DNA of 61,843 bases, counting the filler. It is 6 parts of 6 records of this genome, joined end to end, with 100 filler letters (N's around TTAATTAATTAA, not from the genome) between each part and the next. Parts side by side here need not be neighbours in the genome. Positions count along the whole stretch, not along the records: positions 1 to 24,898 come from DRR378314_1871; 5 more parts are not named here. One strand, 5' to 3'. The notes beneath the pieces are model-generated. The model saw only the letters and a program-made list of their open reading frames with translations, did no database searches and was not told where the DNA came from. How positions within the stretch are numbered: position 1 is the first letter of the stretch; each line of letters opens with the position of its first letter. Below are positions 1-18,804 of this stretch, piece by piece. Position numbers and translations under genes: made by a program.

Positions 1-37
1 TTATAGGGTTGTGCAACAGTTACCATTGTTAGGGTGC
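1..37 (-). repeat. Partial attC-like site of cassette B (R'' box GCACCCTAAC overlapping the stop codon), truncated by the contig start
   Basis: The minus strand reads CAC GCA CCC TAA C-aatggtaactg. GCACCCTAAC (37-28) is the exact reverse complement of GTTAGGGTGC, which opens the same cassette at 1188-1179. Confidence 0.7.
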
Positions 38-1168
38 GTGTTTTCCGTCTTTCGTTCCTTTCGATGAAACATTTACACCTTTGAATAAATTTATAAGCTT
101 ATCGTTAAACTTCAGAGTTTTTAATGATTCTTCTTCTGAGACAGAATTCTTTTTGTAATAATCTGCAATAATTATCCATGCAAAACTTTGTGCCTCTATT
201 GTTTCTTGTCTTTGCATATGAAAAGATAACTCTCCAAAACTATGAGCTGAGTTATTTCTTAATTGAAATAAGTCGTAGTAATAATCTAAATATGATTGGC
301 CTGTCAGCCTAAACTCGTCATCGGGATTTATTAAAATATTCTTCGACCACCTTTCCTTAATTCTACTAAGTTTTGCTTCCGTATCTCTTTTTCCCGGTTT
401 ACCTAATATTGCTTCTACACTTCTCGTGGCTTGAACAATTGCAGCTTCCATTTTTGGAAGAAGATTTATTTTTTCCCATATCTCGGGCTCATGGTCTCTA
501 TGTTTCCTTAAATGTTCAGGTGTCAAAGCACATATTTGACAAAATTCATGATTCTGTTTAGCAGCGATAATGTTTTGACATGCAATAAAAAATTTGTCAT
601 CCCTGTTTAAAATATCTATTAAAACAGCTAAATCATTGAATTCATTAATTCTACGCATACTTTTCCAATTCAAAGTATGATGCCTGTCTTTGAGATAGTG
701 TAAGTCGTCTATTGATTCCTTATGATTAAATCTATAAACCCAATCATATGCAAATTCATGGGAAGATTCAAGTTCACTGGACATTGTAAAAGCAATTTCA
801 AGGATGGATATGGCTGTTTTCCATAATTCATTTTCTTTAACCGCTGTATTTACTTCTACAACAAGAATAGAGTTCTCGTCAGTTTCATATGTCCAACAAT
901 AGAATTTCTCATGACCAATTGTAAAGAATTCAAAAAAGTCTCCTTTTGAAAGAATAAAATCATTACTAATACCTATTCCTTCAATTAGCGCATGTTTTAA
1001 AACCTTATTTGGCGCATCTACAGGATTTTCTTTATAATAATCGATTTTTGCTTGGTGCTGTTCTTCTAGTAATTTTTGAAGCAAAGACATACTTTTTTCT
1101 TTATCACCCTTGATATATTCTTCGGTGAAAAGTTTGATTTTATCTTCTTCTATACTAGGTTTCTTCAT
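29..1168 (-). CDS. Cassette-encoded hypothetical protein with a C-terminal HEPN-like RxxxxH motif (possible RNase/defence protein)
   Basis: 379-aa ORF, very AT-rich. It starts 10 nt after a GTT core site and ends inside the R'' box. Motif LFQLRNNSAHS lies near the C-terminus in a helical-looking region. Confidence 0.65.
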   Translation of the reverse strand: MKKPSIEEDKIKLFTEEYIKGDKEKSMSLLQKLLEEQHQAKIDYYKENPVDAPNKVLKHALIEGIGISNDFILSKGDFFEFFTIGHEKFYCWTYETDENSILVVEVNTAVKENELWKTAISILEIAFTMSSELESSHEFAYDWVYRFNHKESIDDLHYLKDRHHTLNWKSMRRINEFNDLAVLIDILNRDDKFFIACQNIIAAKQNHEFCQICALTPEHLRKHRDHEPEIWEKINLLPKMEAAIVQATRSVEAILGKPGKRDTEAKLSRIKERWSKNILINPDDEFRLTGQSYLDYYYDLFQLRNNSAHSFGELSFHMQRQETIEAQSFAWIIIADYYKKNSVSEEESLKTLKFNDKLINLFKGVNVSSKGTKDGKHAP

Positions 1169-1178
1169 TTTGTTATAT

Positions 1179-1320
1179 GCACCCTAACGTCTGGGGTGTA
1201 TGTTTTGTTGCGTATGGCGGTCAATCGTTTTTCTCGATTGAGAGTAGCCATGGAAGCAACAAAAAAATTAAAAAGCACTCATTGCCTAAGCAATGAAATA
1301 TACGCCCTGTTGAGGGCTGT
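1179..1320 (-). repeat. attC-like recombination site of cassette A
   Basis: Minus strand: acagccctcAAC-agggcgtatatttcattgc ... gcaacaaaacatacaccccagac-GTTagggtgc. Arms 1194-1211 and 1290-1307 pair, and all four mismatches are G.T wobbles on the + (bottom) strand. The spacer next to the AAC/GTT cores is asymmetric. Confidence 0.8.
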
Positions 1321-1364
1321 AACCTCCCGTACTGCGAGTATTATTAATCTTAAATTATAAACCT

Positions 1365-1517
1365 ATGAATAGAATTAAGCTTATAATAAAAAACATACGA
1401 TATCTATGCACTAAAGACTTATCTATGTTAGAATTAAAAAATCAAAAAGTTCCATTAAATTTTAATGGCGAAAGATTAATTGGTATCCTCAGAAGCAAAT
1501 CTAGCGACAACCCTTAA
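1365..1517 (+). CDS. Possible 50-aa small basic protein, convergent with the 75-aa ORF
   Basis: Hand translation gives MNRIKLIIKNIRYLCTKDLSMLELKNQKVPLNFNGERLIGILRSKSSDNP*. A-rich leader (taaattataaacct-ATG) of Bacteroidota type. Below the ORF-track size cutoff. Confidence 0.3.
   Translation: MNRIKLIIKNIRYLCTKDLSMLELKNQKVPLNFNGERLIGILRSKSSDNP
1452..1468 (-). terminator. Weak hairpin plus U-tract after the 75-aa ORF
   Basis: ccattaa/ttaatgg stem, followed on the minus strand by aactttttgattttt. Confidence 0.35.
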
Positions 1518-1703
1518 TAATTCTTCATCCTTAACTTTATTTGCTATGTACAAAATTTCGGCTTCCTTTTCAGGGTCTGATTTTGATATTTCTGCAATAA
1601 TTGCGTGCAACATTCCTTTTATCGCACATTGCGTTTCTATCAATTCAGATAACATATCTGGTAGATTCGTATTGGTAGACTTAAAAATTTCATTTATATC
1701 CAT
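1476..1703 (-). CDS. Small acidic helical hypothetical protein (cassette A)
   Basis: 75-aa ORF with AT-rich leader (ttttataact-ATG), in the same orientation as cassette B. Confidence 0.6.
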   Translation of the reverse strand: MDINEIFKSTNTNLPDMLSELIETQCAIKGMLHAIIAEISKSDPEKEAEILYIANKVKDEELLRVVARFASEDTN

Positions 1704-1721
1704 AGTTATAAAATATTTAGT

Positions 1722-1902
1722 CCTGCTCGTATTTCAGAGCAGGCAAGTGCTTTTTAATTTTAATACACCCCAGACGTTGAGTGCAATTAGATTTAAGGGG
1801 AGAACGGAGGTACGTAGTTCTTTAAATCGTATCCGAAACCATGGCTTGTCGAGACGTCGCAGCGAATTGAGACAAGCCATGGCTGAGGTTATTGCGCTCA
1901 AC
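1722..1902. other. Highly structured non-coding region including an inverted copy of the cassette circle junction
   Basis: Stems: cctgctc/gagcagg (1722-1743); gttgagtgcaat/attgcgctcaac (1776-1787/1891-1902); gatttaa..agaac/gttct..ttaaatc (1790-1828); ccatggcttgtc/gacaagccatgg (1839-1882). 1746-1761 and 1763-1778 are perfect reverse complements of 1264-1279 and 1186-1201. Confidence 0.85.
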
Positions 1903-1925
1903 ACATATATATGTGTAATTAAAGG
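1894..1925 (-). promoter_or_regulatory. Putative attI-like site
   Basis: GTTGAGC core about 150 nt upstream of the divergent integrase, with no attC hairpin arm on the integrase side. It abuts the perfect palindrome ACACATATATATGTGT (1901-1916). Confidence 0.55.
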
Positions 1926-2010
1926 GTAAGATATAAAAATAACCCAATATCTCCTTAACTCCTATACATAAATAGATATGATAAAATTTAAGAGTAGGTA
2001 TTTTATATAT

Positions 2011-2046
2011 CATTTTGTATCTTACAGTATATTGTTATACAAAATG
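2011..2046. promoter_or_regulatory. Inverted repeat immediately upstream of the integrase start (operator or translational hairpin)
   Basis: cattttgtat (2011-2020) / atacaaaatg (2037-2046), perfect 10 bp. Confidence 0.4.
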
Positions 2047-2050
2047 AGGA

Positions 2051-3118
2051 ATGGATTTTTCACAATATACCTTTAAGCCTACCGAGCATCGTAACAAAAA
2101 TGTAATATTGGTGCATTTTCCTTATGATCCCCATTTGGTCCAGCAATTTCGGGAACGTTTTACATCAGCAAAATGGAGTAAAACAAATAAAGCCTGGTAT
2201 TTGCCAGATATACCTGCTGTAAGAACGGCCTTAAAAATAGAGCAGCGACCTTTTATTGCAAAACAACTGACCAAAATTGCACCGGTTAACCAAGCGGCCC
2301 TAATACAGTATTATGATCAACTTAGGTTAAAAGCGCTTAGCCAGAACACCATTCGCATTTATGTAGCAGAATTTGTACACCTACTGCAACTGATTAAAAA
2401 TTATCCCGTAGAAGAGCTTACACCAAAAAGATTAAAGGATTATTTCCTCTATTGTGTGTACCAAGAAGAAATGGGCGAACGTAAAATGAACGGTAAGATA
2501 AACGCTATCAAATTTTATTTTGAAAAAGTACTACATAGGCCACAGCTTTTTTTTGATATTCCAAGGCCTAAAAAACCGGTGACCTTACCTAAAATGCTGG
2601 CCAAGAATGAAGTTGTGAGGTTATTTAAACAGCTTGATAATTTAAAACATCGTATAGCCTTGGAACTTTGTTATGGTCTGGGCCTTAGGGTTTCCGAAGT
2701 CGTAGCTGTCAAAATTAGAGACATTGATAGCGCAAGAATGGTAGTGCATATACATGGGGCAAAAGGTAAGAAAGATAGAATAGTGCCGCTTCCCGTAACC
2801 TTATTGCCAAAACTTAGGGAGTATTACAAGCAATATAGCCCCAAGGAATATTTGCTAGAAGGGAGATATGGGGGGCAATATTCTAAAGGCAGCGTACAGA
2901 AAGTGTTTAAAGTGGCCATGAAAAAAGCAGGTATCAAAAAAAATATCGGGGTACACGGCCTTCGGCACAGTTACGCAACCCATCTCTTGGAATCCGGTAC
3001 CGATATGCGTTTTATCCAAGAACTTTTAGGGCATAGCTCCATTAAGACGACCCAGGTGTACACTAAAGTAACACCGCGTAGTCTTAGAAATATCGAGAGT
3101 CCGTTAGATTCGTTGTAA
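2051..3118 (+). CDS. Tyrosine recombinase, integron-integrase-like
   Basis: Catalytic motifs YGLGLRVSE, KGKKDR, HGLRHSYATHLLE and LLGHSSIKTTQVY. C-terminal SPLD tail as in IntI. SAM-like core-binding region (LSQNTIRIY). Confidence 0.92.
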   Translation: MDFSQYTFKPTEHRNKNVILVHFPYDPHLVQQFRERFTSAKWSKTNKAWYLPDIPAVRTALKIEQRPFIAKQLTKIAPVNQAALIQYYDQLRLKALSQNTIRIYVAEFVHLLQLIKNYPVEELTPKRLKDYFLYCVYQEEMGERKMNGKINAIKFYFEKVLHRPQLFFDIPRPKKPVTLPKMLAKNEVVRLFKQLDNLKHRIALELCYGLGLRVSEVVAVKIRDIDSARMVVHIHGAKGKKDRIVPLPVTLLPKLREYYKQYSPKEYLLEGRYGGQYSKGSVQKVFKVAMKKAGIKKNIGVHGLRHSYATHLLESGTDMRFIQELLGHSSIKTTQVYTKVTPRSLRNIESPLDSL

Positions 3119-3166
3119 AAATAGGACCAAACCACAATGTTCTTAATTTGGTAAGGTCCAACGCTT

Positions 3167-4015
3167 TTATTTTCTATAGGTCCAGGCCACAAATCTACTC
3201 TTCTTACTGCCCTGTTCCATTTCAATGACCTTGACTTCTGCTGGATCGGTTCTATTTATGGCCCTTTTTATATTTTTTAAGTTTTCTTTTTGGGAGACCA
3301 GAGAGCTAAACCAATGTACCTGATCTTTGAATAGCACACTCTCCCCGGCCATCTTTTTTATAAAGGCTTCCTCACCGCCCTTGTACCACAATTCGTTGGC
3401 CAGGCCTCCAAAATTTAAGCGTTCCCCACCCTCTAATTGTAGGTTGCGTACCTTTCGCTGGTTTTGTTTTTCGGCATCCGTCCGGTTTTTGAAAAATGGG
3501 GGATTGCAGACTACAACGTCAAAATTATCACCAGGCTGAATAATGTGTTCCAGAATACTGCTCTTGAACCTTTGCCGTCTTAGCGCTATCTTTTGTAATA
3601 CCTTGTTGCTGTCAATAATTTCCTGTGCGTTTTTTAAGGCATCCAGATCTACCTCACTGGCGGTACATTGCCAATTAAAGTGGCATGTAGCCAAAATGGG
3701 ATAAATAAGGTTGGCCCCGGTGCCTATGTCCAACAAGCTAAGATTGGTTTTTGGAATCAGTTCCGCCACATGCAAGAGGTAATCCAAACGACCGGGAATA
3801 GGAGGGCAGAGGTTATGCTCTGGAATATCCCAATGGTCAAGGCCATAGTGGGCCTTTAATAAGGCCCTGTTCAATGCCTTTACCGCTTGTTTGTCCCCAA
3901 AGGTTATGGTTTGGTTTCCATATTCGTTCACAAAGACAAATTCCTTCAAATCGGGGGAGTGCTGCACTAGGAAATCAAAATCGTAATTTTTGGCAAAGGG
4001 ATTTTCTGGGTGCAC
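3167..4015 (-). CDS. rlmF: 23S rRNA m6A1618 methyltransferase
   Basis: Motifs HPENPF, LCPPIPGRLDY, LDIGTGANLIYP, CNPPFF, GGEEAF, EMEQG..SRFVAW. Likely GTG start at 4015. Confidence 0.93.
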   Translation of the reverse strand: MHPENPFAKNYDFDFLVQHSPDLKEFVFVNEYGNQTITFGDKQAVKALNRALLKAHYGLDHWDIPEHNLCPPIPGRLDYLLHVAELIPKTNLSLLDIGTGANLIYPILATCHFNWQCTASEVDLDALKNAQEIIDSNKVLQKIALRRQRFKSSILEHIIQPGDNFDVVVCNPPFFKNRTDAEKQNQRKVRNLQLEGGERLNFGGLANELWYKGGEEAFIKKMAGESVLFKDQVHWFSSLVSQKENLKNIKRAINRTDPAEVKVIEMEQGSKKSRFVAWTYRK

Positions 4016-4244
4016 GGCTATGGTGTTTATAAAAGGCAAAGTTAGCAAATGCTAATCTAAATCGACTTTTCTTCCGAGTAGTCTTTTGTTATGAAAGAAC
4101 AAAAGGAAAAGGTCCAAATATAATAATGGTGCTACACTATGTGGTGCCCCTAAAATATAGGCCCCTTAAGATTCAACTACTGAAAATTATTTGGTAAATT
4201 TAAGAATGGAGCAGTTATTTTAATTTCATCTTAAAAGCACACTA

Positions 4245-5653: not shown

Positions 5654-6001
5654 ATGATTTTAAGTATAATCAGGGGGAAATGTCCCCAGTGTAATAAAGG
5701 GGATATATTTAGCTCTAAGGGTAGTTCAATACTTTTTAGAATGCCTGAAATGGGTAAAAGGTGCAAAAATTGTAATTATAAGTTTGAAGTGGAACCCGGT
5801 TTTTTCTTTGGGGCCATGTTTGTTAGTTATGCCTTGGCCTGTGCCGAAATGATCGCCTGTTTTGTGCTTACCTGGGCCATTCTTAAAATCCCGATTGCTT
5901 ATATATTTTTATGTGTGGTAAGCATGGCCCTGCTTAGTAGTGCCTTCAATTTTAGGTTATCCAGGACAATTTGGATGTACTTGTTTTACAAAAAACGCTG
6001 A
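5654..6001 (+). CDS. DUF983-like zinc-ribbon membrane protein
   Basis: CPQC...CKNC, EPGFFFGAMFVSY, two TM helices, SRTIW. Divergent from the AraC gene. Confidence 0.8.
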   Translation: MILSIIRGKCPQCNKGDIFSSKGSSILFRMPEMGKRCKNCNYKFEVEPGFFFGAMFVSYALACAEMIACFVLTWAILKIPIAYIFLCVVSMALLSSAFNFRLSRTIWMYLFYKKR

Positions 6002-6118
6002 CTTATTTTTTAGTTTCAATGGTCACCGATCAATTCTCATAAAATATCCCAATTTGGATTTCCTTAAAAGAACTCGACTATTCGGGGGATATTGAACGAG
6101 ACAATGGTACTAAGTCAT

Positions 6119-6152
6119 GGGGTACCTAACTATGCACCAAGTTTGGTACCCC
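6119..6152. terminator. Hairpin between convergent genes
   Basis: ggggtacctaact / agtttggtacccc. Confidence 0.5.
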
Positions 6153-6172
6153 TTGTATCAATTTTGAAGTGC

Positions 6173-7576
6173 TTATTCCTCCCAAGTATCTGTTCTAAAC
6201 GAAGAGGCCGGAAGTCCATCGGTATTGAATAGGCTGCCCTCCTCACAATTCTTAAAGGCATATCTAACGGCCACAGGATTTAATACCCCTTCTGCCCACA
6301 CGCTTAGGGTCCTGTCCCCGTTTATTTTTGCTTCTGCAGGATGAAAAACTTTATCCGCCCCGGCCACTTCAAAGCCCGATAATGGCCGTCCATAACTGGA
6401 GAGTCCGTTCTCATTATACTCAAAGGACAATTTTACCTTGCCATCCTTTATCTCATCTATTGCTTTGTACACCGGACCGCTATACGCAATACCCTCCATG
6501 CCGTAATCTTTGGCAAGTGCCCAAAGGGCCAATCTATCTCCCACCAGTTTCTTCTCCCTGGGATGGATAAAATCGCAGTCGCCAATGTCCATTGTTACTG
6601 CCATTCCCGTATTTTCAACCGTTTTCATAGTGTGCAATTGCGCTTCCCTAACATAGCCTGCATTACCGCCGTCATAGCCATATGGTGCAATTTGAACAAA
6701 GTAAAAGGGAAACTTGCCCTGTTGCCACTTTTCCCTCCAGGTATTGATCATGGTGGGGAACAGCTGGGCGTATTCCTTGGCCTGGTTCCTGTTCGATTCC
6801 CCTTGGTACCAAATAGCTCCCTTAATGTTGTACCCTATTAAGGGGTTGATCATGGCATTGTACAATAGGGTAGGGGTACGTTGTGGTGCTCCCTCAGGAA
6901 GCTTTTTGGGCAACTCTATGGTATTGAATTCGGAAAGCGTCTCCTTATCCATCCAGGTCTCCACATTGGATCCGCCCCAGGAGGTATGGATCAAACCGAT
7001 GGGAACATTTAAAAGGCTATTCAACTTTTTTCCAAAAAAGTAAGCGGTGGCACTAAAGTCCCTTACGGTAGCCGGACCGGCCTCGGACCATTGCCCTTCC
7101 ACATTTTCCAATGGCTCCAAACTGGTAGCTCTTTTTACGGTAAACAGGCGTATCTGACTGTTCCTGGAATTTAAAATGGCTTCAGCACTGCCATTTATGG
7201 GTTGGTTGTTAAATCCTTTTACAGGCATTTCCATATTGGATTGCCCGGAACACAACCAAACCTCCCCGATCATAACATTTTTCAGGGTACGCGCATTGCT
7301 CCCCTTTATGTTCAGGGTATAGGGTCCGCCATAGGATGGGGTTTGGATCTTCAGTTTCCATTGTCCGTTGGCATTGGCAGTTGCGGTGGATTCTTTTCCC
7401 CAACTTCCTATTACTTTAATTTTAGCGTTCGGTTTATCGGTTCCCCAAATGGAGACATCGCTATTTTGTTGTAAGACCATATGGTCCCCAAAAAAGGCAG
7501 GTAATTCAATTTGAGCTAAGGAGACTGTGGCAGTGCTCAATAGCAATGCCAATAGTAAGGTTTTCAATAAATTCAT
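6173..7576 (-). CDS. Sialate O-acetylesterase (SASA/SGNH) family, secreted
   Basis: Signal peptide; motifs GEVWLCSGQSNM, WGGS, IWYQGESN, D..IHP. Confidence 0.92.
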   Translation of the reverse strand: MNLLKTLLLALLLSTATVSLAQIELPAFFGDHMVLQQNSDVSIWGTDKPNAKIKVIGSWGKESTATANANGQWKLKIQTPSYGGPYTLNIKGSNARTLKNVMIGEVWLCSGQSNMEMPVKGFNNQPINGSAEAILNSRNSQIRLFTVKRATSLEPLENVEGQWSEAGPATVRDFSATAYFFGKKLNSLLNVPIGLIHTSWGGSNVETWMDKETLSEFNTIELPKKLPEGAPQRTPTLLYNAMINPLIGYNIKGAIWYQGESNRNQAKEYAQLFPTMINTWREKWQQGKFPFYFVQIAPYGYDGGNAGYVREAQLHTMKTVENTGMAVTMDIGDCDFIHPREKKLVGDRLALWALAKDYGMEGIAYSGPVYKAIDEIKDGKVKLSFEYNENGLSSYGRPLSGFEVAGADKVFHPAEAKINGDRTLSVWAEGVLNPVAVRYAFKNCEEGSLFNTDGLPASSFRTDTWEE

Positions 7577-7788
7577 AGTTGTTATAAATATGGTAATAGG
7601 CTGTTATTAAAATGTTCCTCAAAAGGGTACCCTGGAATTTTCCTTAATGAGAAAGCACTCCGATAAATGTAGCAAATTTTTAGGTTTTCAAGTAAGTTCT
7701 AAGTTATATCAACGCTGCCCAGTGTTAGGAGTAGAAGTCCAATTATAATTCAATTGATTTTTTTTATTTCCAAGTCTCAGGGCTATGG

Positions 7789-8307
7789 CTAATCCAAAGC
7801 AATTTTATCGATCAACAATATAAAGTTTTCGGTTCTTTTGTTCCCGATCAGGAAAACAATTTCCTCAATGCTATTTTTTGAAAAATTGGGCATGTCCAAT
7901 TTCCTGCCCCGAAAAGAAGGATACATATCTTTGAGTGAAATTTTGATTTCTTCCCACTCCCCTGAAGTTGGGAAAGTAACGATATAGGAATAATAATTGC
8001 TGGAATCGTCCTTTACCCTAAACTGATAATTTTTGCCGTCGCCTTTGAGTTTAATGGTTATGTTACTGTCTTCGGTTACCTGTAGCTTTTCAAACCGGTA
8101 ACGCACGGAAGAGAATCCACCATTGTTTTCCAAAGAAATCTCCCCCTTAAATAGTCCATGTCCATTAGGGCTCAAGGTGAAGCTCCCTACCGACAAGCCT
8201 CCCATGACCCCATCATTCACAATTCTCCATTCCTTGATGTTGGAATCTTTATTGAAATCGAAAATTATTTTTGAGGTCATAAGCGTCATAAAAACTAAAG
8301 TGGCCAA
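7789..8307 (-). CDS. CIA30 family protein
   Basis: WRIVNDGVMGGLS, LENNGGFSSVR, KGDGKNY. Confidence 0.9.
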   Translation of the reverse strand: MATLVFMTLMTSKIIFDFNKDSNIKEWRIVNDGVMGGLSVGSFTLSPNGHGLFKGEISLENNGGFSSVRYRFEKLQVTEDSNITIKLKGDGKNYQFRVKDDSSNYYSYIVTFPTSGEWEEIKISLKDMYPSFRGRKLDMPNFSKNSIEEIVFLIGNKRTENFILLIDKIALD

Positions 8308-8415
8308 AAGATACTTTATAATTCACCTTTAGGGTAATTTACGACAACTTAGGCTAAGGACCATATTTAGTTAGGGGATATGGTTGGCACAAGTCAAAAA
8401 TTAGACTTTACATTT

Positions 8416-9372
8416 TTAGTAAATGGACCGCTCCACCTTGTTTTTTATGGGGGGTATGGTCTGCAAGTATTCAAATATGGCCCCGGCTTCGGCATCGGTA
8501 AGTTGAGGATAGGGAAGCATGGGGTAGGTCAAGGCCTTTGCACCCTTTTTCTGCCCATACTTCAGTGCATTGACAAAATCTTCCTTGGTCCAATTCCCAA
8601 TTCCGGTTTCCTTGTCCGGTGTAAGGTTCGATGTCAGCATTACCCGTCCCTGCAAATCCAAGGGTTTATTTCCCCCTGCAAAGTAGCCTTCACTTAATTC
8701 CGGATTTAAAAAATCGTTGGTTTTAAAGTCGGCCGAGTGACAGGAGAAACAATCCAGGTTATGTGCCAGATATTTGCCCAATTCCACAGTGTCGTCCTCA
8801 TTAGGTAAGGGAATTGCCTCAGTGGGCATAGGTAAGGGTTTAAAAGCAACCCTACAAAGGATTTTGGTCAACAAAGAAGGTTTTGGTGGAACATCCGGAG
8901 TGGGATCCGCTTTCACCATAGGGTGGTCCGACCTTAAAAACGCAATAATGGCATTAATATCTTCATCCGCCATATGTGGCAATTTGGCCATATAGGGCGG
9001 ACTGTATTGACCGTCCCTTTTTATGCCCGTTCTAAGGAGGTATACCAGTTCCCCATCCGTCCAGTCCCCAATGCCATAGGTCTTGTCCTGGGTGATGTTC
9101 TGGGAATAGATTTCTCCAAATTCCGGTGGGGCATCCATCATTTTTTGACCCGTAAGTTTATTGGTTTGATGGTTCAAATGGCAGCTGGCACATAACATAA
9201 CGGCCAATTTTTCGCCCCTGGCCAAAGCTTCGGGACTACTATTTACCTTGAAATCAATTTTTTCCACATCATAGGAAGGAATATCGTTGGCACTGATAAA
9301 GATTACAACAATTCCAATCAATAATACAATCAATCCTATGCTAACTCCTAGTATTTTTAATCCTTTTTTCAT
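8416..9372 (-). CDS. Diheme cytochrome c family protein
   Basis: Two CxxCH motifs (CASCH, CFSCH), repeated N[IL]TxDxxxGIGxWT, N-terminal membrane anchor. Confidence 0.9.
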   Translation of the reverse strand: MKKGLKILGVSIGLIVLLIGIVVIFISANDIPSYDVEKIDFKVNSSPEALARGEKLAVMLCASCHLNHQTNKLTGQKMMDAPPEFGEIYSQNITQDKTYGIGDWTDGELVYLLRTGIKRDGQYSPPYMAKLPHMADEDINAIIAFLRSDHPMVKADPTPDVPPKPSLLTKILCRVAFKPLPMPTEAIPLPNEDDTVELGKYLAHNLDCFSCHSADFKTNDFLNPELSEGYFAGGNKPLDLQGRVMLTSNLTPDKETGIGNWTKEDFVNALKYGQKKGAKALTYPMLPYPQLTDAEAGAIFEYLQTIPPIKNKVERSIY

Positions 9373-9810
9373 CTAAACAATTTTTAATTTAACAAAAGGG
9401 TATTTAAAATAGAGGGGGAAATTTTATAGTTTCAATAAGTTGTTTTCAGTATTAATAGCACAAAAGACAACAGCTATATGCTATAATAAAAACATAGGGT
9501 TAGCTACTCAGGTAACGGTTGCACAATGTTTCCGAAGTCTAATTAAGTGAAAGATTTTGGTCATGGGTCGGTTTTTGGCTATAATATTAAATAGCTGTTG
9601 GTTTCAAAAAAATATCCTAGCTGGGGTACTCCTAAAATAGTAATTTTTTTGCATAGATTGATATAGTCTTGATTACAATCTTCTTTAAATCAGTTAGATG
9701 TTGATGAAAGGTGCCTTATGGGTCAATGTTTACCTTTTGTAGGAACATTCACCATTCGAATATTGCTTGAACAAAAATTTCTCAAGGAAATAGATTACAC
9801 TTTGGGCCAA

Positions 9811-11688
9811 TTAGTCATTCTTGTCCTTTTCCACCTTTACGCTAAAACTTGGCGCCTTATAATCCTTGGGCAAATAATTAGCCGGTGTAGTAGTCATATT
9901 TCCATCCCTGGCAGCCCTATAATGTGGCGATAGGATTTCAATGCCCCTTTCATTAAATACGTCTTGTATATTTTGATGCAAATTGGAATAGATCAATGCC
10001 TGTTTACTGGCATTTTTTGTATGTGCGTTTATTTGGTAGGCAACATAGAAATCTTCCAAGCTGGTCTGTAGTACAAAGGGAGCAGGATCCTTTAAAAGTA
10101 GATCTGTCCTTAATGCGGCATCGATCAGGGCCTTATGTACATCTATCCAAGGAACATCATAGCCAATGGTCACGGTGGTATGTATAATAAGCCCCCTTTC
10201 CAAAGTTTCGCTGGTAAAATTGGTAGTGTTGCCGGAGAGCACCGAAGAATTTGGGATGGTGATTACTTCATTTTTTGTGGTTTTCACCCTGGTTACCAAC
10301 AAGGTTTTTTCTACCACATCGCCGGTGACTTCACCAATTTTTATACGATCCCCAATTTTGAAGGGCCGCATATAGGTAATGACCAATCCGGCCACCATAT
10401 TGGCAATGGCCGTTGAGGATCCCAAAGAAAACAGTACCCCTATAAATACGGAAACTCCTTTAAATATATCTGAGTCCGAACCTGGTAAATAGGGGAAAAT
10501 CAATATGAACATAAAGGCATAAAGCAAAAACTTCACTATGCTGAAAGTAGGCATGGCCCAGTCCGAATGAAAACCGGATAATTTTAGTTTTTCCGCTTCA
10601 ATTTCTGAAAATATGTACCGTACGAAACGGATACAGTATTTCATTACAAAATAGATGACCAAGATGCTGATCAGGTTGGGTATATAGTGCCATACAGCGA
10701 TGGCGCCACCTTTAAATGGGGACCATATTAATTGGAAAAGCGTATCTGCCCAAGTGCGGGAGAAAGGAAAAATACTAAAAATGATCGGTAGGGAGATGTA
10801 CAGCAAAAGCGCGTACACCAACCAACGAAAAATATTGAACAAAAACAGCACCACTTGCAATTCCTGATCGGCAGTCAGAAAGGTATAATCCTTGTAAGAT
10901 AGGTTTTTGAGCCACTTGTCCTTTGATCTATGAATGTAGGCGAGTGCCCTGGTATAACCTTTCCCTATGAGGATAAATATTAGCCAGGCAAGGCCAATGA
11001 CGAGGATGACCAAGCCTATGCGCATAAATATTTTTAATATGCCACTCTCTTTCTTTACTTCAATGATGGAGGTCTTGATCTTAAGCATAAATTCATCTGC
11101 CAGGGCGCGCATACTTTTGTCGTACCAAATGGCATCGGATTCGGAAATACTCATAATGATGGTTTCTCCATAAACAATATCAAATGTGTTTTCAGATTTT
11201 ACAACGACAATGGAATCGATCTTTAGAAAATCATCATCATCCAATTTTTTGATTTTTTTTGATATGCTAAGTGCCCTCTCTTGGGGAGTGGAAGCTCCAA
11301 TCTTGGAATAGATATGGAATAGGGTATCGCCAAGGGAAGTGATTACCGGAAATCCGGAGGCAGTATTCCGCAATGAATCTATACGCGCTATTTTGTTGGC
11401 TATGCGCGACTTATTATTGTCTTCAATTGTTTTAAGCTGAAGAAGAAGTTCTTCTTTTTGTATGTTATCCGTTGTTTTTAAAGAATTGAGCTGATTCTCC
11501 AAATCCGCTTTCTTTATGGAATCTTCAACACGTTGCTGTTCAATTTCCACTATACGCTTGTTATAATTTTTTAAGATTTCCGTATTGACCGAATCTTTGT
11601 TTACCGTAATGGTATCGGTCTGACTTTTTACATTATAACTGCAAAGAAGGAGTAGGGTAAAAAATAATACTCGTGCGTAGGGTCTCAT
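9811..11688 (-). CDS. Large MscS-family mechanosensitive channel
   Basis: RPFKIGDRIKIG, ITIPNS, TIGYDVPW, GIEILSPHY; periplasmic coiled N-terminus. Confidence 0.9.
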   Translation of the reverse strand: MRPYARVLFFTLLLLCSYNVKSQTDTITVNKDSVNTEILKNYNKRIVEIEQQRVEDSIKKADLENQLNSLKTTDNIQKEELLLQLKTIEDNNKSRIANKIARIDSLRNTASGFPVITSLGDTLFHIYSKIGASTPQERALSISKKIKKLDDDDFLKIDSIVVVKSENTFDIVYGETIIMSISESDAIWYDKSMRALADEFMLKIKTSIIEVKKESGILKIFMRIGLVILVIGLAWLIFILIGKGYTRALAYIHRSKDKWLKNLSYKDYTFLTADQELQVVLFLFNIFRWLVYALLLYISLPIIFSIFPFSRTWADTLFQLIWSPFKGGAIAVWHYIPNLISILVIYFVMKYCIRFVRYIFSEIEAEKLKLSGFHSDWAMPTFSIVKFLLYAFMFILIFPYLPGSDSDIFKGVSVFIGVLFSLGSSTAIANMVAGLVITYMRPFKIGDRIKIGEVTGDVVEKTLLVTRVKTTKNEVITIPNSSVLSGNTTNFTSETLERGLIIHTTVTIGYDVPWIDVHKALIDAALRTDLLLKDPAPFVLQTSLEDFYVAYQINAHTKNASKQALIYSNLHQNIQDVFNERGIEILSPHYRAARDGNMTTTPANYLPKDYKAPSFSVKVEKDKND

Positions 11689-11861
11689 ATCATGGTCCGT
11701 TTAAAGGTTGGTATGCGCATTGGCATCAAGGCCATTGGCGTGGTTATTCAAAAGTATGATTTAAATAAACACAAAATTCTTGGATTCTGATCGACTATTA
11801 AAATTTAAATAGCCTTCGCTAAGTCATAAGATGGCTATTATAACACACTTGGTCGTTATCC

Positions 11862-13511
11862 TTAAATATTGGATTTTGCCTTTTCCAAAGCCTCATTGAT
11901 ATTCTTGAAGATATACTCTTCGTTCAATACGGAGAACATTTCGTTCTTCTCAAAATCCTTTTTGGTCTCTTCGTTGATCCCGGATAGAATTACTTTTATA
12001 CCCTTGGCCCTGTACGTTTTTATAATCTCCTTTAAGCTCTGATATCCGGTGGCATCGATCAACGGAACATACCGCATTCTTATAATAATGACCTTGGGTT
12101 GTAAATGGGTATTGGATATGGTTTCCTGAAATTGTCTTGCGGCACCAAAAAACAAGGGGCCATTAATTTCATATAGCAGCACATTTTTAGGGAGCTCCAG
12201 TAGTTCATCGTCAAACAAATGTTCGCCGTTAATATTATCAGATGTAATTTTTTCAACCAGTACCGCCTCGCTCATTCTTTTCATAAACATAAAACTGGAG
12301 AGTACAATCCCAATTTCAATGGCTATAACAAGATCAAAAATAACCGTTAGGAAGAAGGTGCTAAGTAGGATGATGATATCCATTCTATTGCCCTTTAAAA
12401 TCGATCTAAATTGTCGCCATTCGCTCATATGATAGGCCACGACCATTAAAATTCCCGCCAAACAGGAAAGGGGTATCAACTTGGCATAAGGAGCAAATAA
12501 AAGCATTATGGACAAGAGAACCAATGCGTGTACTATACCCGCAATTGGGGTTCTACCGCCATTCTTTACATTGGTGGCAGTTCTTGCTATGGCCCCTGTG
12601 GCGGGGATTCCCCCAAAGATGGCCGAGAATATATTGGCACCGCCCTGAGCTATCAATTCCATATTGGAACGATGTTTTCCGCCTATCATGGAGTCCGAAA
12701 CCACAGCGGACAGCAGGGATTCTATACCACCTAATAGGGCAATGGCAAAAGCAGGCTGTATAAGGGACTTTACAGTGGCATAATCTACGTTGGGAAGGCT
12801 GGGCATGCTCAAATGATTCGGGATTTCCCCAAAATTGCTTTCAATAGTATCCACCGGTATCCCAAAAACCTGTACCACAATTGTGGACAGTAGGATGGCA
12901 ACTATAGAACCCGGTATTTTCTTTATCAGTTTTTGAAAATATAGGGTTATGATGACCGTTCCGCCAGCGATTGCAATGGCATACCTATTGATCTTGTCCA
13001 AATTTTCAAAATATACCGCCCATTTATCCATAAAGTCGGCCGGTACCTTCGCTATCTGAAGTCCAAAAAAATCATTGATCTGGGAAGAAAAGATAATCAG
13101 GGCGATACCACTGGTAAAGCCTACTATAAGTGAATAGGGAATAAATTTTAATAGGTTCCCCAATCGGGCAAGTCCCAGGCCTATTATGATAAATCCGGCC
13201 ATAAAGGTGGCTATGGTAAGGCCATTTATTCCATGCTCTTCAACAATACCGTATACGATTACGATAAAGGCTCCAGTTGGCCCCCCAATTTGGACCCGAC
13301 TACCGCCGAAGGCCGAAATTATTATTCCGGCAATAATGGCCGTAATTATTCCCTTTTCCGGCGATACTCCGGAGGCTATTGCAAAAGCGATCGCCAAGGG
13401 AAGGGCAACGATGCCCACGATCAATCCAGAAAGTATGTCTTTTGTAATGGTTTCCTTGGAAATTCCCTCCTTTAAAAGTGAGAACAACTTAGGAATAAAT
13501 TCTTTGTTCAT
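11862..13511 (-). CDS. SulP/SLC26 anion transporter with STAS domain
   Basis: VALPLAIAFAIASG, IGGPTGAF, TGAIARTATN, GPLFFGAA, IDATG. Confidence 0.93.
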   Translation of the reverse strand: MNKEFIPKLFSLLKEGISKETITKDILSGLIVGIVALPLAIAFAIASGVSPEKGIITAIIAGIIISAFGGSRVQIGGPTGAFIVIVYGIVEEHGINGLTIATFMAGFIIIGLGLARLGNLLKFIPYSLIVGFTSGIALIIFSSQINDFFGLQIAKVPADFMDKWAVYFENLDKINRYAIAIAGGTVIITLYFQKLIKKIPGSIVAILLSTIVVQVFGIPVDTIESNFGEIPNHLSMPSLPNVDYATVKSLIQPAFAIALLGGIESLLSAVVSDSMIGGKHRSNMELIAQGGANIFSAIFGGIPATGAIARTATNVKNGGRTPIAGIVHALVLLSIMLLFAPYAKLIPLSCLAGILMVVAYHMSEWRQFRSILKGNRMDIIILLSTFFLTVIFDLVIAIEIGIVLSSFMFMKRMSEAVLVEKITSDNINGEHLFDDELLELPKNVLLYEINGPLFFGAARQFQETISNTHLQPKVIIIRMRYVPLIDATGYQSLKEIIKTYRAKGIKVILSGINEETKKDFEKNEMFSVLNEEYIFKNINEALEKAKSNI

Positions 13512-13686
13512 ATAGGAATCAAATGGTAGTCAAAGGTATTCAGTGAGGTACTCAAAGTATATTACATTTTATAATAGTAATAAGAGAGGATAAACCTAGG
13601 GTGATTTTTTCTTTTGAAATATGATAATGGTCATTTTATATCCTTGTAACATCATATTATTAATATTGGGCAGTCCTATTTTTTAT

Positions 13687-15201
13687 TTAGGATTGAGGAG
13701 TTGTGGATACGGTGGCCGTGTCATTTTTTTCTAGGTCTATGGTTATGTAGGAATAGGGCAGCACGCCATTGGCTACTTGGGTACTGGCTGTTTTTTCTCC
13801 ATTTACAAAGAGAAATTCATGGGTACCAGGTATTTTAGCGGTCCATTTTATGGTTTCCCCATTTATATTATGGGCTATGGTTTTGGTCTTTCCAAAATGT
13901 TTTACACCAATTTTATTGGATAATAAGGGAACGTTGGCCATTTCGGCCCATTCCAAATCTTTTTCCAACCTGGAAAAGCTTACAAACCCATTGTTAGCTG
14001 CATCTGCCTCTATGCCCATCAACCCTCGGGTTAAATGCTCTATTACCGTATAGGAATTCTCGGGATAGGCCCTTCGGGGGTTTTGAACGCTGCACAAATT
14101 TATGATCATCCTGTTGGCCAGTTCCGATTTGCCATTTTCATAAAACATAATAGGCAAATAAGATTTTAGCTCCACAATTAATTTGTTGAAGTTAGCCTCG
14201 TATTTCCCTACCAAATTCAAAATTTTGGAATTGTCCTTAATGGTATCAAAATAGAATAGGTAATGCAGAAAAGCCTGATCTTTCCCTACCATAAAATAAT
14301 CGAAGCTTCCATCGTCATAAAGAATGGAACGATATTCCTGTTTTTCGTTATCGTACCAAAATTGATCTAGGAATTCCTGTTCCTGATTGGCCTTCTCCAA
14401 GTATTCGGAAGATAGGGACAGGTCGCCCCTGAGCTTTAGCATCTCTGCGTAGGCCTTGTAAGCGGCTATTATGGAAGCGGTCATATCTATTCCCAGCATA
14501 GTTTCCCCTCTGCCACCTTCATTATAGGAAGGGATTCCCCTCTTATTTCCAAACCTACTATTTTCCGGATTGTCGGGCGTATGCAGGGATCGGTTTCTTT
14601 CCAGGGTTTCGCGGTAACCTAAATCCCAGTGATCCAAATATTCGTTGAGACTTAATTCATAAAAATTTATCAGATCTGGGTTCTCCAGGTATTCTTTGTT
14701 TCCGGTCCATTTATAAAGTCGATTGGCAGTATAGGTAATATCAAAGTTTGCCGGCAGGTTATACCAAAAATCTTGATCATTTTCGTAGTCTACCGGGGCA
14801 GGTTTGTTATACCTGTTAATTTCCCAATAGCTACAGTAATCTTTTTCCTTGCTAATGTTTTGGGCAAACTTTAGAAACATATTAAAATTGTGTTTCCCCA
14901 ACCCTAAAATTTCCGCACCAATTGCCTGGTGGGAAACATCCCGCATGCAGAACGCTTCCCGATCGGGTAGGGCAGCCTCATACCAATACCCAACTGGGTC
15001 ATTATTGTCATGGGCGTAGGACAAGGCCTTGTTTTTGGCCCAGTTGAAAGCTTTGTTCAATTCTTTATCGGACGAAACGAATATTAGTTCCCTGGTAGGT
15101 TTTTCGGGCGATTTTTGGGATGTGCCATTGCAACTCCCCAATATAGCGCACAATAAAAGTATTGGAAAGTTTTTTAAGGTGGTGGTTGGACTTGTTTGCA
15201 T
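13687..15201 (-). CDS. Hypothetical lipoprotein, possibly a six-hairpin glycosidase-like enzyme
   Basis: Lipobox LGSC; WYEAALP.R.AFCMRDVSHQ motif; aromatic- and acid-rich. Confidence 0.6.
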   Translation of the reverse strand: MQTSPTTTLKNFPILLLCAILGSCNGTSQKSPEKPTRELIFVSSDKELNKAFNWAKNKALSYAHDNNDPVGYWYEAALPDREAFCMRDVSHQAIGAEILGLGKHNFNMFLKFAQNISKEKDYCSYWEINRYNKPAPVDYENDQDFWYNLPANFDITYTANRLYKWTGNKEYLENPDLINFYELSLNEYLDHWDLGYRETLERNRSLHTPDNPENSRFGNKRGIPSYNEGGRGETMLGIDMTASIIAAYKAYAEMLKLRGDLSLSSEYLEKANQEQEFLDQFWYDNEKQEYRSILYDDGSFDYFMVGKDQAFLHYLFYFDTIKDNSKILNLVGKYEANFNKLIVELKSYLPIMFYENGKSELANRMIINLCSVQNPRRAYPENSYTVIEHLTRGLMGIEADAANNGFVSFSRLEKDLEWAEMANVPLLSNKIGVKHFGKTKTIAHNINGETIKWTAKIPGTHEFLFVNGEKTASTQVANGVLPYSYITIDLEKNDTATVSTTPQS

Positions 15202-15263
15202 TTTTTTAATTTAATTTCTGGTCTAGAGTTTGGTTCAGGGATTGGCCTAACCAATTTTTAAGT

Positions 15264-15734
15264 TTATCTATTCCTTTTTTTGTTCAATTCCGCCCTTCTC
15301 ATCGGCATGGAGTCTATGGTTCCAAAAAGTTCTTCAGCGGAAAGCAATCCGTTTTTTTCAAGTTTATTGCCGCCATCCAGTCCAATCAATACTACTTTGA
15401 AATCCACATTTTTTCTAGCAAATCTATCGAATAGGGCAGAGGAGGAAACCCATTCATTTTGTTCAGGATCAACAGCATCTTTGATTAGGGTATAACGCTG
15501 AGGCAAAACATGATAGATCAGCATTTTTCTTTCCTTAAGTTCGCTTGGAAATTTATAAAATTCGGCAATTTGATCCTGATATTCCTTGGAATTCTCATTT
15601 TGGGACATGATTAGTACGACCCTATTTTTCCATAGGTGTTTATTTAGATCTTGTCCATGGGCATAGCTTATCATCAGAATTCCTAATAAAATAAAGCCGC
15701 TTCGTATTATATTATTTTGTGTTTCTACAACCAT
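15264..15734 (-). CDS. DUF4174-like protein
   Basis: WKNRVVL, FKVVLIGLDGGNK, IDSMPMRRAE. Confidence 0.85.
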   Translation of the reverse strand: MVVETQNNIIRSGFILLGILMISYAHGQDLNKHLWKNRVVLIMSQNENSKEYQDQIAEFYKFPSELKERKMLIYHVLPQRYTLIKDAVDPEQNEWVSSSALFDRFARKNVDFKVVLIGLDGGNKLEKNGLLSAEELFGTIDSMPMRRAELNKKRNR

Positions 15735-16789
15735 TTCTTCTTTCTAAAATAGATCAACATTCCAATGGCAATGACTATAATTACGCCCCACATAATAAAA
15801 TAACTGTATTTATAATGAAGTTCCGGCACAACATCAAAGTTGGTCCCATAAATACCGGCAATAAAGGTCAGCGGAATAAAAATCACGGAAAATACAGTCA
15901 GAAATTTCATGATGTCGTTCAGCTTGCTACTAATGGTGGTATGATAGATGTTCAATTGGTCGGACAGTATTTCCCTATAGCTATCCGAAGAGTCGCTGGC
16001 GTGATTTATGTTGTCCTGTAGCTCCTTAAAATGCATTTCCGTACTTTCCGTAATATAATCCGATTCCATTTTTGCAAGGTTCAATATCAATTCCTTGGCT
16101 GGTTTAATATTCTTTCTCAAAAAATTCAATTCCCGTTTGTAGGAGTTGATTTCCCCAATAATCTCCTGCCTTGGTTCCAAGAGTAGACTTTCTTCCAGCA
16201 TTTCAATTTTTTCTCCCAATACGCCAATAATATAGATGTAGTTATCAATTACAATATCCAACAGGGCAAATAAGAGGTAATCCGTACCGCCGTTCCTAAT
16301 TCTTCTTTTCTGTTTTCGGATCCGTTCCCTAACTGGTTCAAAGACGTCCCCTTTGGTTTCCTGAAAGGAAATCAAAATCGATTCGGTCAATATCAAACTC
16401 AGGTTTTCAACATTTATGGTATCGGAATTGGGGGCTTGTTGCAACATTTTTATGGAGATATAAATGCAGTTGTCGTATTCCTTGATCGTTGGTCTTGCCT
16501 GGGTGTTCATTACATCTGCCAAGACCATACGGTCAAAATTGAATTCATTCGCAATGCCTTCAATAATTTCGGTATTGTGGAGTCCGTCTATATTAAACCA
16601 GGTAACCGTGTCCTTTTCCTGATATTTTAATACCTCCTTTACCGTCTTTATGGTTTCTTCGGCCAGGCTATTGGCATCAAAATCTATTATTCTAAGCAGT
16701 ACTTCATTAATTTTTTTATCACCACGGAAGATAAGTTGATCAGGTGAAGTCCCTATTTCCTCCTTTGATTTTTTTAAGAATCTTGCCAT
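15725..16789 (-). CDS. corA: Magnesium/cobalt transporter CorA family
   Basis: TWFNIDGLH, FIPLTFIAGIYGTNF (GMN-variant), PEL, two C-terminal TMs. Confidence 0.9.
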   Translation of the reverse strand: MARFLKKSKEEIGTSPDQLIFRGDKKINEVLLRIIDFDANSLAEETIKTVKEVLKYQEKDTVTWFNIDGLHNTEIIEGIANEFNFDRMVLADVMNTQARPTIKEYDNCIYISIKMLQQAPNSDTINVENLSLILTESILISFQETKGDVFEPVRERIRKQKRRIRNGGTDYLLFALLDIVIDNYIYIIGVLGEKIEMLEESLLLEPRQEIIGEINSYKRELNFLRKNIKPAKELILNLAKMESDYITESTEMHFKELQDNINHASDSSDSYREILSDQLNIYHTTISSKLNDIMKFLTVFSVIFIPLTFIAGIYGTNFDVVPELHYKYSYFIMWGVIIVIAIGMLIYFRKKKWL

Positions 16790-16831
16790 TTTTATTTTTT
16801 TATTGATCACATCGTTCTATGTTGATTGGGT

Positions 16832-17707
16832 TCATTTTTTAGAACCTGGCTGTTCATTTTTAGGGATTATTTCTGTATGGCCCGACTTAAAGTGAAGGTC
16901 CATTTGGGGAAAGGGTATTACAATCTTGTTTTCACTGAATTTCCGGTTGATGATCTTTCGGATATCACTTTTTACCTTCTCGATTCTAAATACGTTTTCG
17001 CTAAAAAACAGCACCTCAAAATCCAAGGAGGAATTGCCGAAATTTACAAAGCGTCCCTCTATCATTTTGCTATCATCAAAATCAGGATGTTCCAAAACAC
17101 TTTCCTCCAGTATTCTGACAACAAGATCAACATCACTACCATAGGCCACTCCAACACCTATTTTGAAACGGGTTTTTTTCTTCTGGTGGCTCCAGTTGAT
17201 GACCTTATTGGTAGTTATCAATGAATTTGGTATAATTATGGAAATATCGTTTCTGTTAAGTCCCCGCGAAGTTCTCAATCCAATTTCCTGTATTTCCACT
17301 ATATCGCCATCTATTTCCAGGACGTCGTTGATTTTGATCGATTTCTCAGAAAGTAATATTATGCCAGAGATTACATCGTTGAAGGTTTGTTGCAGGCCCA
17401 ATCCCACACCCACCAATAGGGCAGCGGAGCCGGCAATTAAAATGGTGACCTTGATGCCCACGGATTCCAATATAAACCCAAAGGCAATTACCCATATAAC
17501 ATATTTAATGATTTGATATAGGGCATAAGTGTTTCCCTTATCCAGGTGCAACCCCTTATAGCGCCGAAATAGGGCGGATTTTATGAGCTTCAATATTACC
17601 CTGGTAATTAGAATTATTAATAGAATTATAACCAGGGTGTATACTTTTATTTTATAATCCCCAATACTGATCAGATTAAAGTCCAATAACTTACTTAGCG
17701 TATCCAT
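16832..17707 (-). CDS. MscS-family small mechanosensitive channel
   Basis: GVGLGLQQTF, IIPNS..NWS, VGVAYGSD, IPFPQ. Confidence 0.92.
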   Translation of the reverse strand: MDTLSKLLDFNLISIGDYKIKVYTLVIILLIILITRVILKLIKSALFRRYKGLHLDKGNTYALYQIIKYVIWVIAFGFILESVGIKVTILIAGSAALLVGVGLGLQQTFNDVISGIILLSEKSIKINDVLEIDGDIVEIQEIGLRTSRGLNRNDISIIIPNSLITTNKVINWSHQKKKTRFKIGVGVAYGSDVDLVVRILEESVLEHPDFDDSKMIEGRFVNFGNSSLDFEVLFFSENVFRIEKVKSDIRKIINRKFSENKIVIPFPQMDLHFKSGHTEIIPKNEQPGSKK

Positions 17708-17961
17708 TTCATTTTTTTAGGGCCACCGGATGCCTTGCCAAGAAGTTCAGCTTGTGCAGGGGGAGGGTAGGAGCGTTGGTTTTATTATACTGAAATATAG
17801 TGAAATCCCTTGAACTATCCTCAGGAAAATGAGCATTAGAGCGGAAAATGAACATCGCTTCCTTAGGTGGGTTTAGGACCAATTAAAAAGCGGCAATGTT
17901 CTTATTATCCTTATTTTTTTTGGAAGCATTTAGGTTTTAGAAAAGTACTTATACCAATTCT

Positions 17962-18750
17962 TTAGTTCTTAAGTGGCATGGTCAAATTAGGGACAATGGT
18001 TTTCATGGCCTCCTCTGTGTCAATATAGGCCAGTAAATCCCTAAGGGAAACCACCTTAAAATTGTGATCTGACAGATACTGTAGATATTCCTTGAATAAG
18101 TTTGGCGGGGTATTTACCCATGGATGTTCCACATCCGGTACGCCGTGCAGGGTAAGCACTGTGATCTTGCCGTTTTTGGCTTCGCCCATAGCGGCTTTAA
18201 TTTCACTTTTATTACCCGCATTGGTCGCCCAACTAGGGATTAAAAATGGATGGTCTGTTAAAGGGTCGTATGCCCTGCTGCCCCCGGCCCTGGCAAAACG
18301 GTAACTTTTTTCTTCCAAAAACTTAAGTACATCGGCATTTAGTCCGTAACCGGGATAGGCAAAGTTTTGTGGCGGGGTTATCCCCAGGGAATCACATTTA
18401 TTTTCTATATATTCCAACTCTGCATTAAATTGTGATTGGGAGAGCTTGCTAACATTGGCATGGGTATGGGTGTGATTGGCCACTTCAAAACCCATTTTGT
18501 CCAATGCTTTTATCTGTCTCCAATTCATATACAGGGTACTGTCCTTATAATTTGGAGGAAATTCGCATACAAAGAAGGTAGCCCCAAAACCGTACTCCTT
18601 CAAAAGAGGGGCCACCACCGCATACTGACTCGCCGGGGCATCATCAAAAGTGAGCACCAGCAATTTATCGGGTATTCCCTTTTTCAATATTTGTGCATGG
18701 CCAAATAAAAAAAGATTAAGGGCCAATAGGACAAGGATGTTTTTTATCAT
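17962..18750 (-). CDS. Polysaccharide deacetylase (NodB/CE4)
   Basis: LTFDD, NHTHTH, FAYPG, LHG; signal peptide. Confidence 0.88.
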   Translation of the reverse strand: MIKNILVLLALNLFLFGHAQILKKGIPDKLLVLTFDDAPASQYAVVAPLLKEYGFGATFFVCEFPPNYKDSTLYMNWRQIKALDKMGFEVANHTHTHANVSKLSQSQFNAELEYIENKCDSLGITPPQNFAYPGYGLNADVLKFLEEKSYRFARAGGSRAYDPLTDHPFLIPSWATNAGNKSEIKAAMGEAKNGKITVLTLHGVPDVEHPWVNTPPNLFKEYLQYLSDHNFKVVSLRDLLAYIDTEEAMKTIVPNLTMPLKN

Positions 18751-18804
18751 GAAAAATTAGGTCTTGGTTAAATTTAGGAAATTTTGTTCAGTAACTATAC
18801 CTAC

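Follow-up and report, generated by a model that had tools for sequence, protein, structure and literature searches.

Sedentary chromosomal integrons, such as those of Vibrio, combine a tyrosine recombinase (VchIntIA, PDB 2a3v) with a fixed GTT entry site and a divergent array of co-oriented cassettes of low guanine-plus-cytosine (GC) content, most of which hold a single open reading frame (ORF). Each cassette ends in an imperfect palindrome, R''-L''...L'-R', which carries AAC and GTT and folds better as the bottom strand. The core consensus of these attC sites is RYYYAAC for R'' and GTTRRRY for R', and the distal part of R' belongs to the next cassette. Here we describe a locus of the same organization in a 61.8-kb stretch of DNA (hereafter the window, meaning the whole stretch that was analyzed). 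Very probably, at roughly 85%, it is the integrase-proximal end of a sedentary integron-like gene-cassette platform in a marine flavobacterium, Arenibacter, and we are equally confident that this platform is real and probably active. It further shares with integrons stop codons that lie inside R'', start codons close to the core and, in a sister array, a group II intron in the opposite orientation. By standard tools, the host phylum scores as nearly integron-free: in the accessible part of the IntegronFinder 2.0 report, one complete integron is listed for Bacteroidetes, in Salinibacter (PMC9024848).

The nearest system in print, judging from the accessible text of the papers concerned, is rAID-1 of gut Bacteroidales, which occurs in the same phylum (Bacteroidota) and also places an XerD-like tyrosine recombinase beside co-oriented short genes of low GC content (10.1101/471110). 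As defined in that text, rAID-1 has a recombinase with at least 44% identity to B. fragilis BF9343_RS08045, at least two downstream genes co-directional with the recombinase, and array genes with a GC content of at most 41%. Both payload genes of our locus are below this GC bound (ORF A 0.318, ORF B 0.325). However, the rAID-1 array lies 3' of its recombinase and runs in the same direction, whereas the array described here is upstream and divergent, with rlmF downstream. The payloads were not recognizable as immunity genes with Pfam or PADLOC, and no B. fragilis protein was present among the best 120 relatives of the Bacteroidales member of our recombinase family. In the parts accessible, the two rAID papers describe no hairpin sites, box rules or entry junction, and 10.1101/2025.05.03.651265 mentions neither hairpin, cassette nor integron; motifs in Fig. 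S4 of Ross et al. (10.1101/471110) may overlap the sites described here. A published description of this flavobacterial system was not found in full-text searches, most subscription journals being outside their reach.

The locus comprises the following features, given in window coordinates.

2051-3118, plus strand: tyrosine recombinase, complete, 355 aa, with an Xer/IntI-like core (residues 86-355) and a family-specific N-terminal domain (residues 1-85).
1900-2050, no strand: attI-like region, the spacer between cassette junction and recombinase start, conserved across loci; it contains the junction triplet AAC (1900-1902) and the 16-nt perfect palindrome ACACATATATATGTGT (1901-1916).
1189-1902, minus strand: cassette 1, 714 nt, which opens with GTTGAGCGC (1902-1894) and closes with its own hairpin site.
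1776-1902, no strand: E element, located at the 5' end of cassette 1, a hairpin of 127 nt whose terminal stem has 12 bp.
1476-1703, minus strand: ORF B, 75 aa, payload of cassette 1, from the ORF list.
1177-1321, plus strand (the better-folding bottom strand): attC-like hairpin site of cassette 1, from the covariance model R1 described below; R' junction AAC-G at 1186-1189, L' stem from 1196, L'' stem to 1305, R'' box at 1309-1317.
1-1188, minus strand: cassette 2, cut by the window start, which opens with GTTAGGGTGC (1188-1179) and has its R'' box at 37-28.
1-30: site of cassette 2, of which the first 27-30 nt are present.
29-1168, minus strand: ORF A, 379 aa, payload of cassette 2, a conserved protein family.
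3167-4048, minus strand: rlmF, 23S rRNA m6A1618 methyltransferase (NF008725, 359.7 bits against a cut-off of 302), chromosomal flank outside the element.

The two cassettes are co-oriented on the minus strand, and the recombinase, on the plus strand, is divergent from both ORFs. Besides the values given above for ORF A and ORF B, GC content is 0.393 in the recombinase gene and 0.434 in rlmF. The boxes of cassette 2, GTTAGGGTGC and GCACCCTAAC, are complementary at 10 of 10 positions (28-37 and 1179-1188), and those of cassette 1, read on the minus strand, at 8 of 9 (GTTGAGCGC at 1902-1894, GCCCTCAAC at 1317-1309). The ATG of ORF A (1168) is 10 nt from its opening box, and its stop codon (31-29) falls within the closing box at 28-37. 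An earlier reading of this DNA from its letters (the original prediction) had listed these ORFs, both box pairs, the ATG spacing and the stop within the box, and each was found at the position it gave.

Comparison of related genomes revealed a fixed junction with variable content. The nearest genome (G001) was 98% identical from window position 1899 rightwards, and its DNA to the left was unrelated. Nine Arenibacter loci, those with an orthologous recombinase (89-98% identity), were compared. Conservation in all of them extends from the start codon up to the palindrome ACACATATATATGTGT; beyond the adjoining AAC everything differs, giving nine different first cassettes, eight of which start with GTT. 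At the ninth locus (G006), an intron-flank-like sequence lies directly beside the palindrome, with ATC in place of AAC at the junction. The palindrome and junction of the window also occur in Zobellia, and in every case, Arenibacter or Zobellia, the entry point is 150 nt from the recombinase start codon. Gene content left of the recombinase had been expected to vary between strains, and it does so at all nine loci. A further genome of the genus (G008) has rlmF with no recombinase and no site in 13 kb, and the presence of the element therefore varies among strains; an orthologous recombinase was found in 9 of 25 Arenibacter genomes. The proposed anchoring next to rlmF proved to be a property of this genus: rlmF adjoins the recombinase in all eight orthologous Arenibacter loci that could be checked, and not in other genera.

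The same junction was observed in metagenomes. Contigs carrying the recombinase, from four runs, match the window down to 1898-1900 and then show seven different continuations, with two or more of them in a single metagenome (two in X5, two or three in X7). In run X3, an 801-nt unitig has ends that fall exactly at 1186 and 1902 and a different 413 nt in the middle. A 55-nt unitig joins 1874-1899 to 1186-1214, so that cassette 1 is connected head to tail in nature; a circle, a tandem copy or a different array context could each give such a junction, and contigs cannot discriminate among them. Two X5 contigs share window positions 1-30/32 and diverge right after the GTT at 28-30. Window positions 1-30 are therefore the conserved end of another site type, common to other cassettes, and the array continues beyond position 1, as had been suspected for this contig end. 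A 91% copy of positions 1-32 is also present in G001 behind a different ORF of 205 aa, among co-oriented ORFs (L003, G001:C1:1194803-1197834, at about 1500-1535). Model R1 gave no match in this stretch, which may be a second cassette cluster that has no recombinase.

The hairpin sites form a family. A search for 9-mer boxes with up to one mismatch was too noisy, and the analysis relied on exact matches and on sites defined by the model. In chains of exact box complements, the distance from a closing box to the next cassette start was recurrently 125-134 nt. Fifteen such sites align with invariant AAC, TA.A, C..TA..C and CGTT, and RNAalifold, applied to their bottom strands, paired the R boxes and formed an L stem of 13 pairs, with compensatory changes in 11 of 18 pairs. 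The covariance model R1 was built from these 15 sites, and matches were counted at E <= 0.001. It detected 52 sites in 13 sources totaling 242 kb, whose hosts are Arenibacter, another genus of the family (G033), Maribacter, Zobellia, Tenacibaculum and a Paludibacteraceae metagenome-assembled genome (MAG). Sites never change strand within a locus, always following the strand that encodes the recombinase, and all are upstream of this gene; the search included 10 kb of downstream flank at four loci. Further AAC...GTT hairpins thus flank neighboring genes in related arrays, as the original prediction had anticipated. Control flanks totaling 53.6 kb yielded no R1 match, and the window a single one (1177-1321, 83.4 bits, E 5e-15). 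Folding of this site is also beyond chance, with z = -6.4 against shuffles for the 147-nt stretch 1176-1322 on the plus strand.

A pairing constraint is directly visible in the 52 sites: the paired fraction of cells is 95.5%, which falls to 72.1% in shuffles and to 28-53% with slid partners. Compensatory changes occur in 14 of 18 pairs, in an alignment that was fitted to the model and so favors it. AAC and GTT are retained in 49-51 of the 52 sites, and the consensus consists of an R stem and an L stem. Site lengths fall into classes of about 52-61, 122-131 and 146-193 nt. These classes set the family apart from integrons, as do the R boxes: only 4 of 51 sites conform to GTTRRRY in R', and likewise only 4 of 51 to RYYYAAC in R''. 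Pairs of the form RYYYAAC...GTTRRRY occurred five times in 20 kb of G001 and were absent from window positions 1-3200.

The sites are also polar. Three pairs are G·T in 49, 43 and 49 of the 52 sites, which leaves C·A mismatches on the opposite strand. In the window site, all three non-Watson-Crick positions of the L stem are G·T on the plus (bottom) strand; this placement of the wobbles had been noted in the original prediction, and the family consensus agrees with it. The bottom strand yields the more stable fold at 43 of 52 sites, with a mean advantage of 2.0 kcal/mol (-32.7 versus -30.3 kcal/mol for the top strand at 1177-1321). Strand marks in this family are conserved G·T wobbles and a spacer loop of 8 versus 2 nt, and its consensus has no extrahelical bases, a further difference from integrons.

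A crossover signature was sought by comparing the hexamer after GTT at a proximal site with the closing-box hexamer of the next distal site. The two were identical (6/6) in 25 of 39 adjacent site pairs, compared with 12 of 2353 pairs between arrays and 2 of 51 comparisons of a site with itself. First cassettes were compared with the attI junction at six loci that allowed it, and matched 6/6 in three and 5/6 in three, including the window. Such matches are predicted by strand exchange inside GTT and by R'/R'' pairing in an excised cassette, and a plain repeat or terminator would not produce them. Sites that follow stop codons and fold stably could be repeats of the repetitive extragenic palindromic (REP) or bacterial interspersed mosaic element (BIME) type, or terminators, with box matches arising by chance. 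We find this hardly credible: it leaves the excess of hexamer identity over the between-array control and the compensatory changes without an explanation, as well as the confinement of sites to one side of the recombinase and their absence both from the control flanks and from the other ~60 kb of the window.

The recombinase contains the Pfam domains Phage_integrase and Phage_int_SAM_4, and its catalytic residues are complete, R213, K238, H302, R305, H328 and Y337 being invariant in 27 sequences. All curated models scored below their cut-offs. Among NCBIfam models, recomb_XerA_Arch ranked first (202 against a cut-off of 220) and TIGR02249 second (193 against 265, in two stretches); PRK15417 reached 120 against 435, and the XerC and XerD models were far below (178 against 335 and 175 against 330). 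The prediction that standard models miss the locus therefore holds for the IntI profiles. Among solved structures, the best sequence match was XerA (PDB 4a8e and 5hxy, E 8e-40), and the AlphaFold model (pLDDT 84) matched VchIntIA best (2a3v, E 8.8e-17), followed by XerA. Residues 203-245 of VchIntIA, which presumably carry the I2 helix that reads extrahelical bases, have no counterpart in our protein. Two residues stand in their place, and the predicted structure has no inserted helix at 263-278. Residues 1-85 (window 2051-2305) form a conserved beta-beta-alpha-beta-beta domain with an invariant W42. No Pfam family covers this domain, and its best structural matches, CASTOR2 and the N-terminal domain of T4 UvsW (Z 4.6), are within the noise of the method.

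Compared with integrons, the platform thus has no IntI-specific insert and carries instead an N-terminal domain that lacks a clear fold relative. A canonical integron that is merely divergent in sequence would fit the geometry (divergent recombinase, entry site, co-oriented cassettes and AAC...GTT sites), the second rank of TIGR02249 and the best structural match to VchIntIA. We give this explanation only a slender chance, in view of the absent insert, the IntI profiles that are split in two stretches below their cut-offs, the consensus fit of 4 in 51 for R' and for R'', the additional 85-aa N-terminal domain, and the single complete Bacteroidetes integron listed in the accessible part of PMC9024848. 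In the available text of Smyshlyaev et al., the insertion is called 'essential for integron function' (PMC8138268). The insert being absent, the locus is not an integron by the accepted definition, and of the 'sedentary integron' originally proposed the integron-like cassette platform stands and the strict name does not.

Xer recombinases offer another comparison. Archaeal XerA is the best match by sequence and in NCBIfam, and the entry site contains a duplex palindrome, as does dif, the site of XerC/D. However, all Xer models are below cut-off, and our protein has an added N-terminal domain, is linked to cassette arrays and is not housekeeping. The last point follows from its distribution: besides the 9 of 25 genomes of the genus, matches at E <= 1e-90 were present in only 10 of 401 genomes, and 10 of 180 genera, of an even phylum sample. 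Among the matches listed, and by their source names, full-length relatives with at least 59% identity are numerous in marine Flavobacteriaceae, Weeksellaceae, Chitinophagaceae and Bacteroidales MAGs. Genes of the family are often located 150-2300 nt from a contig end (G003, G019, G025, G177, G306, G321 and G424), which suggests that short-read assemblies break at the arrays and that draft genomes under-represent them.

Catalysis by this protein is read from its sequence, and the cassettes, although real, could have been moved by something else, with the recombinase a bystander (an Xer-type resolvase or the partner of an IS91 element). The array of G001 does contain a group II intron and IS91-type pairs with a tyrosine recombinase of their own. 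Nevertheless, we consider such a bystander very unlikely. All 52 sites, in 13 arrays and several genera, are upstream of and co-oriented with this recombinase family; the entry point is at 150 nt from the start codon in every case; the gene, found in 9 of 25 genomes of the genus, is not a housekeeping one; the IS91-linked recombinases are about 42% identical and lack the N-terminal domain; and the window is free of insertion sequences (IS). The absence of transposases noted by the original prediction is thus true of the window, and not of the sister array of G001, which has IS and a group II intron within it.

The insertions in that array (L004) are at 8217-11489, 13273-15020 and 16501-18248 and comprise a group II intron reverse transcriptase/maturase, encoded on the strand opposite the cassettes, an IS3-type element and two pairs of Phage_integrase with IS91 (Y2_Tnp).

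The E element at the 5' end of cassette 1 suggests a different alternative. Beyond it, at 1746-1784, part of the site of cassette 1 recurs in inverted form, linked to that site by two inverted repeats (I4 and I5), each 16/16. A DNA-inversion switch, in which the recombinase flips the ORF B segment between repeats 1186-1201/1264-1279 and 1746-1778, would make sense of these two exact 16-nt repeats flanking ORF B, and in the first cassette of G018, which shares the E element and the inverted half-site, the ORFs are on the opposite strand. Such a switch is nonetheless very improbable, since it does not explain unlike content at one junction in nine genomes and four metagenomes, the hexamer rule or the strict co-orientation of 52 sites. 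In addition, inverted half-sites occur in only 3 of 13 arrays, no contig with an inverted segment is reported, and in the X3 variant only the middle is exchanged, with the orientation of both shoulders unchanged.

The first cassettes of G018 (L035) and Zobellia (L052) begin with this same arrangement of E element and inverted half-site, which in metagenome contigs accompanies other payloads. The hairpin at 1776-1902 is not a second site of the R1 family: the model gave no match in 1746-1902 even with filters off. Rfam produced two chance-level matches only in 1-2100. The E element may serve as a leader module or offer the L'-R' half of the site another sequence to pair with, or it may be a scar left by an inverted event.

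For the integron-like platform itself, we propose the following mechanism. Promoter-poor cassettes of low GC content form an array divergent from the Xer/IntI-like recombinase, which would be the catalyst. New cassettes would enter a fixed double-stranded site beside the recombinase gene, the GTT/AAC at 1900-1902 that abuts ACACATATATATGTGT, and would be expressed from the attI side. A cassette site would consist of an R'' box (variable hexamer plus AAC), a short spacer, the L'' stem, a variable middle, the L' stem, a longer spacer and C-GTT, and it would be read as a folded single strand, preferably the bottom one, with resolution that depends on replication. Strand exchange would take place inside the GTT triplet, so that the hexamer after GTT would travel with the next cassette, and the R'' box of an excised cassette would pair with the cassette's own first bases. 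The three G·T wobbles and the 8-versus-2-nt spacer loop would mark the bottom strand, fixing the orientation of inserted cassettes.

Several observations weigh against this reading. Only one complete site is present in the window, and related sites are kin, so that the counts given above overstate independent support. Fourteen of the 39 adjacent site pairs fail the 6/6 hexamer identity; the wide spacing of most of these suggests that sites were missed or that IS had inserted. The model leaves the E element and the inverted half-site unaccounted for. The recombinase lacks the insert with which integron integrases act on folded sites, and this makes single-strand recombination less certain. Finally, a search for a promoter that faces the cassettes gave none, the motif TAnnTTTG having no exact occurrence on either strand in 1703-2050.

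Functions of the payloads are mostly obscure. ORF A and ORF B belong to no Pfam, NCBIfam or PADLOC family, and neither has a relative in any other array examined. ORF A has 49 relatives over several phyla, all of which are named hypothetical. In 21 sequences, H207, C210, C213 and H223 are invariant and a motif R304-x4-H309 is present, and an atlas lead pointed to "Apea-like HEPN" (0.95), implying that ORF A may be a zinc-binding nuclease of the HEPN type. Cassettes of the G001 array include DUF6155 and UPF0158 among their payloads, most of them of similarly obscure function.

With regard to the window as a whole, GC content is 0.33-0.47 in the first 26 kb and 0.53-0.70 from 26 to 60 kb, and likeness to G001 ends near 24.9 kb (6001-26000 searched). 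The 61.8-kb window may join DNA of different origin, for example through MAG contigs or mis-binning.

Beyond the locus itself, a broader proposition has, in our view, about even odds: that a second, widespread class of integrons exists in Bacteroidota, in which an Xer-grade recombinase without I2 joins folded single-stranded cassette sites to a duplex attI, strand choice is made by G·T wobbles and an asymmetric spacer loop, and a new N-terminal domain replaces I2. Already at the present locus, the entry site, the hairpins that end the cassettes, the swapping of boxes and the strand bias are all found without the IntI insert, which challenges the definition of the integron. Surveys for integrons therefore overlook an entire pool of mobile cassettes in Bacteroidota, marine and other; such cassettes can be delimited, and their payloads mined, with the covariance model and the hexamer rule. 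The origin of single-strand recombination from Xer-type enzymes becomes testable with a natural system. If true, the proposition means that the integron principle was invented independently or that a pre-I2 stage has survived to the present, and in both cases it would bear on the chicken-egg paradox that the accessible part of PMC4792948 poses for the co-evolution of I2 and attC.

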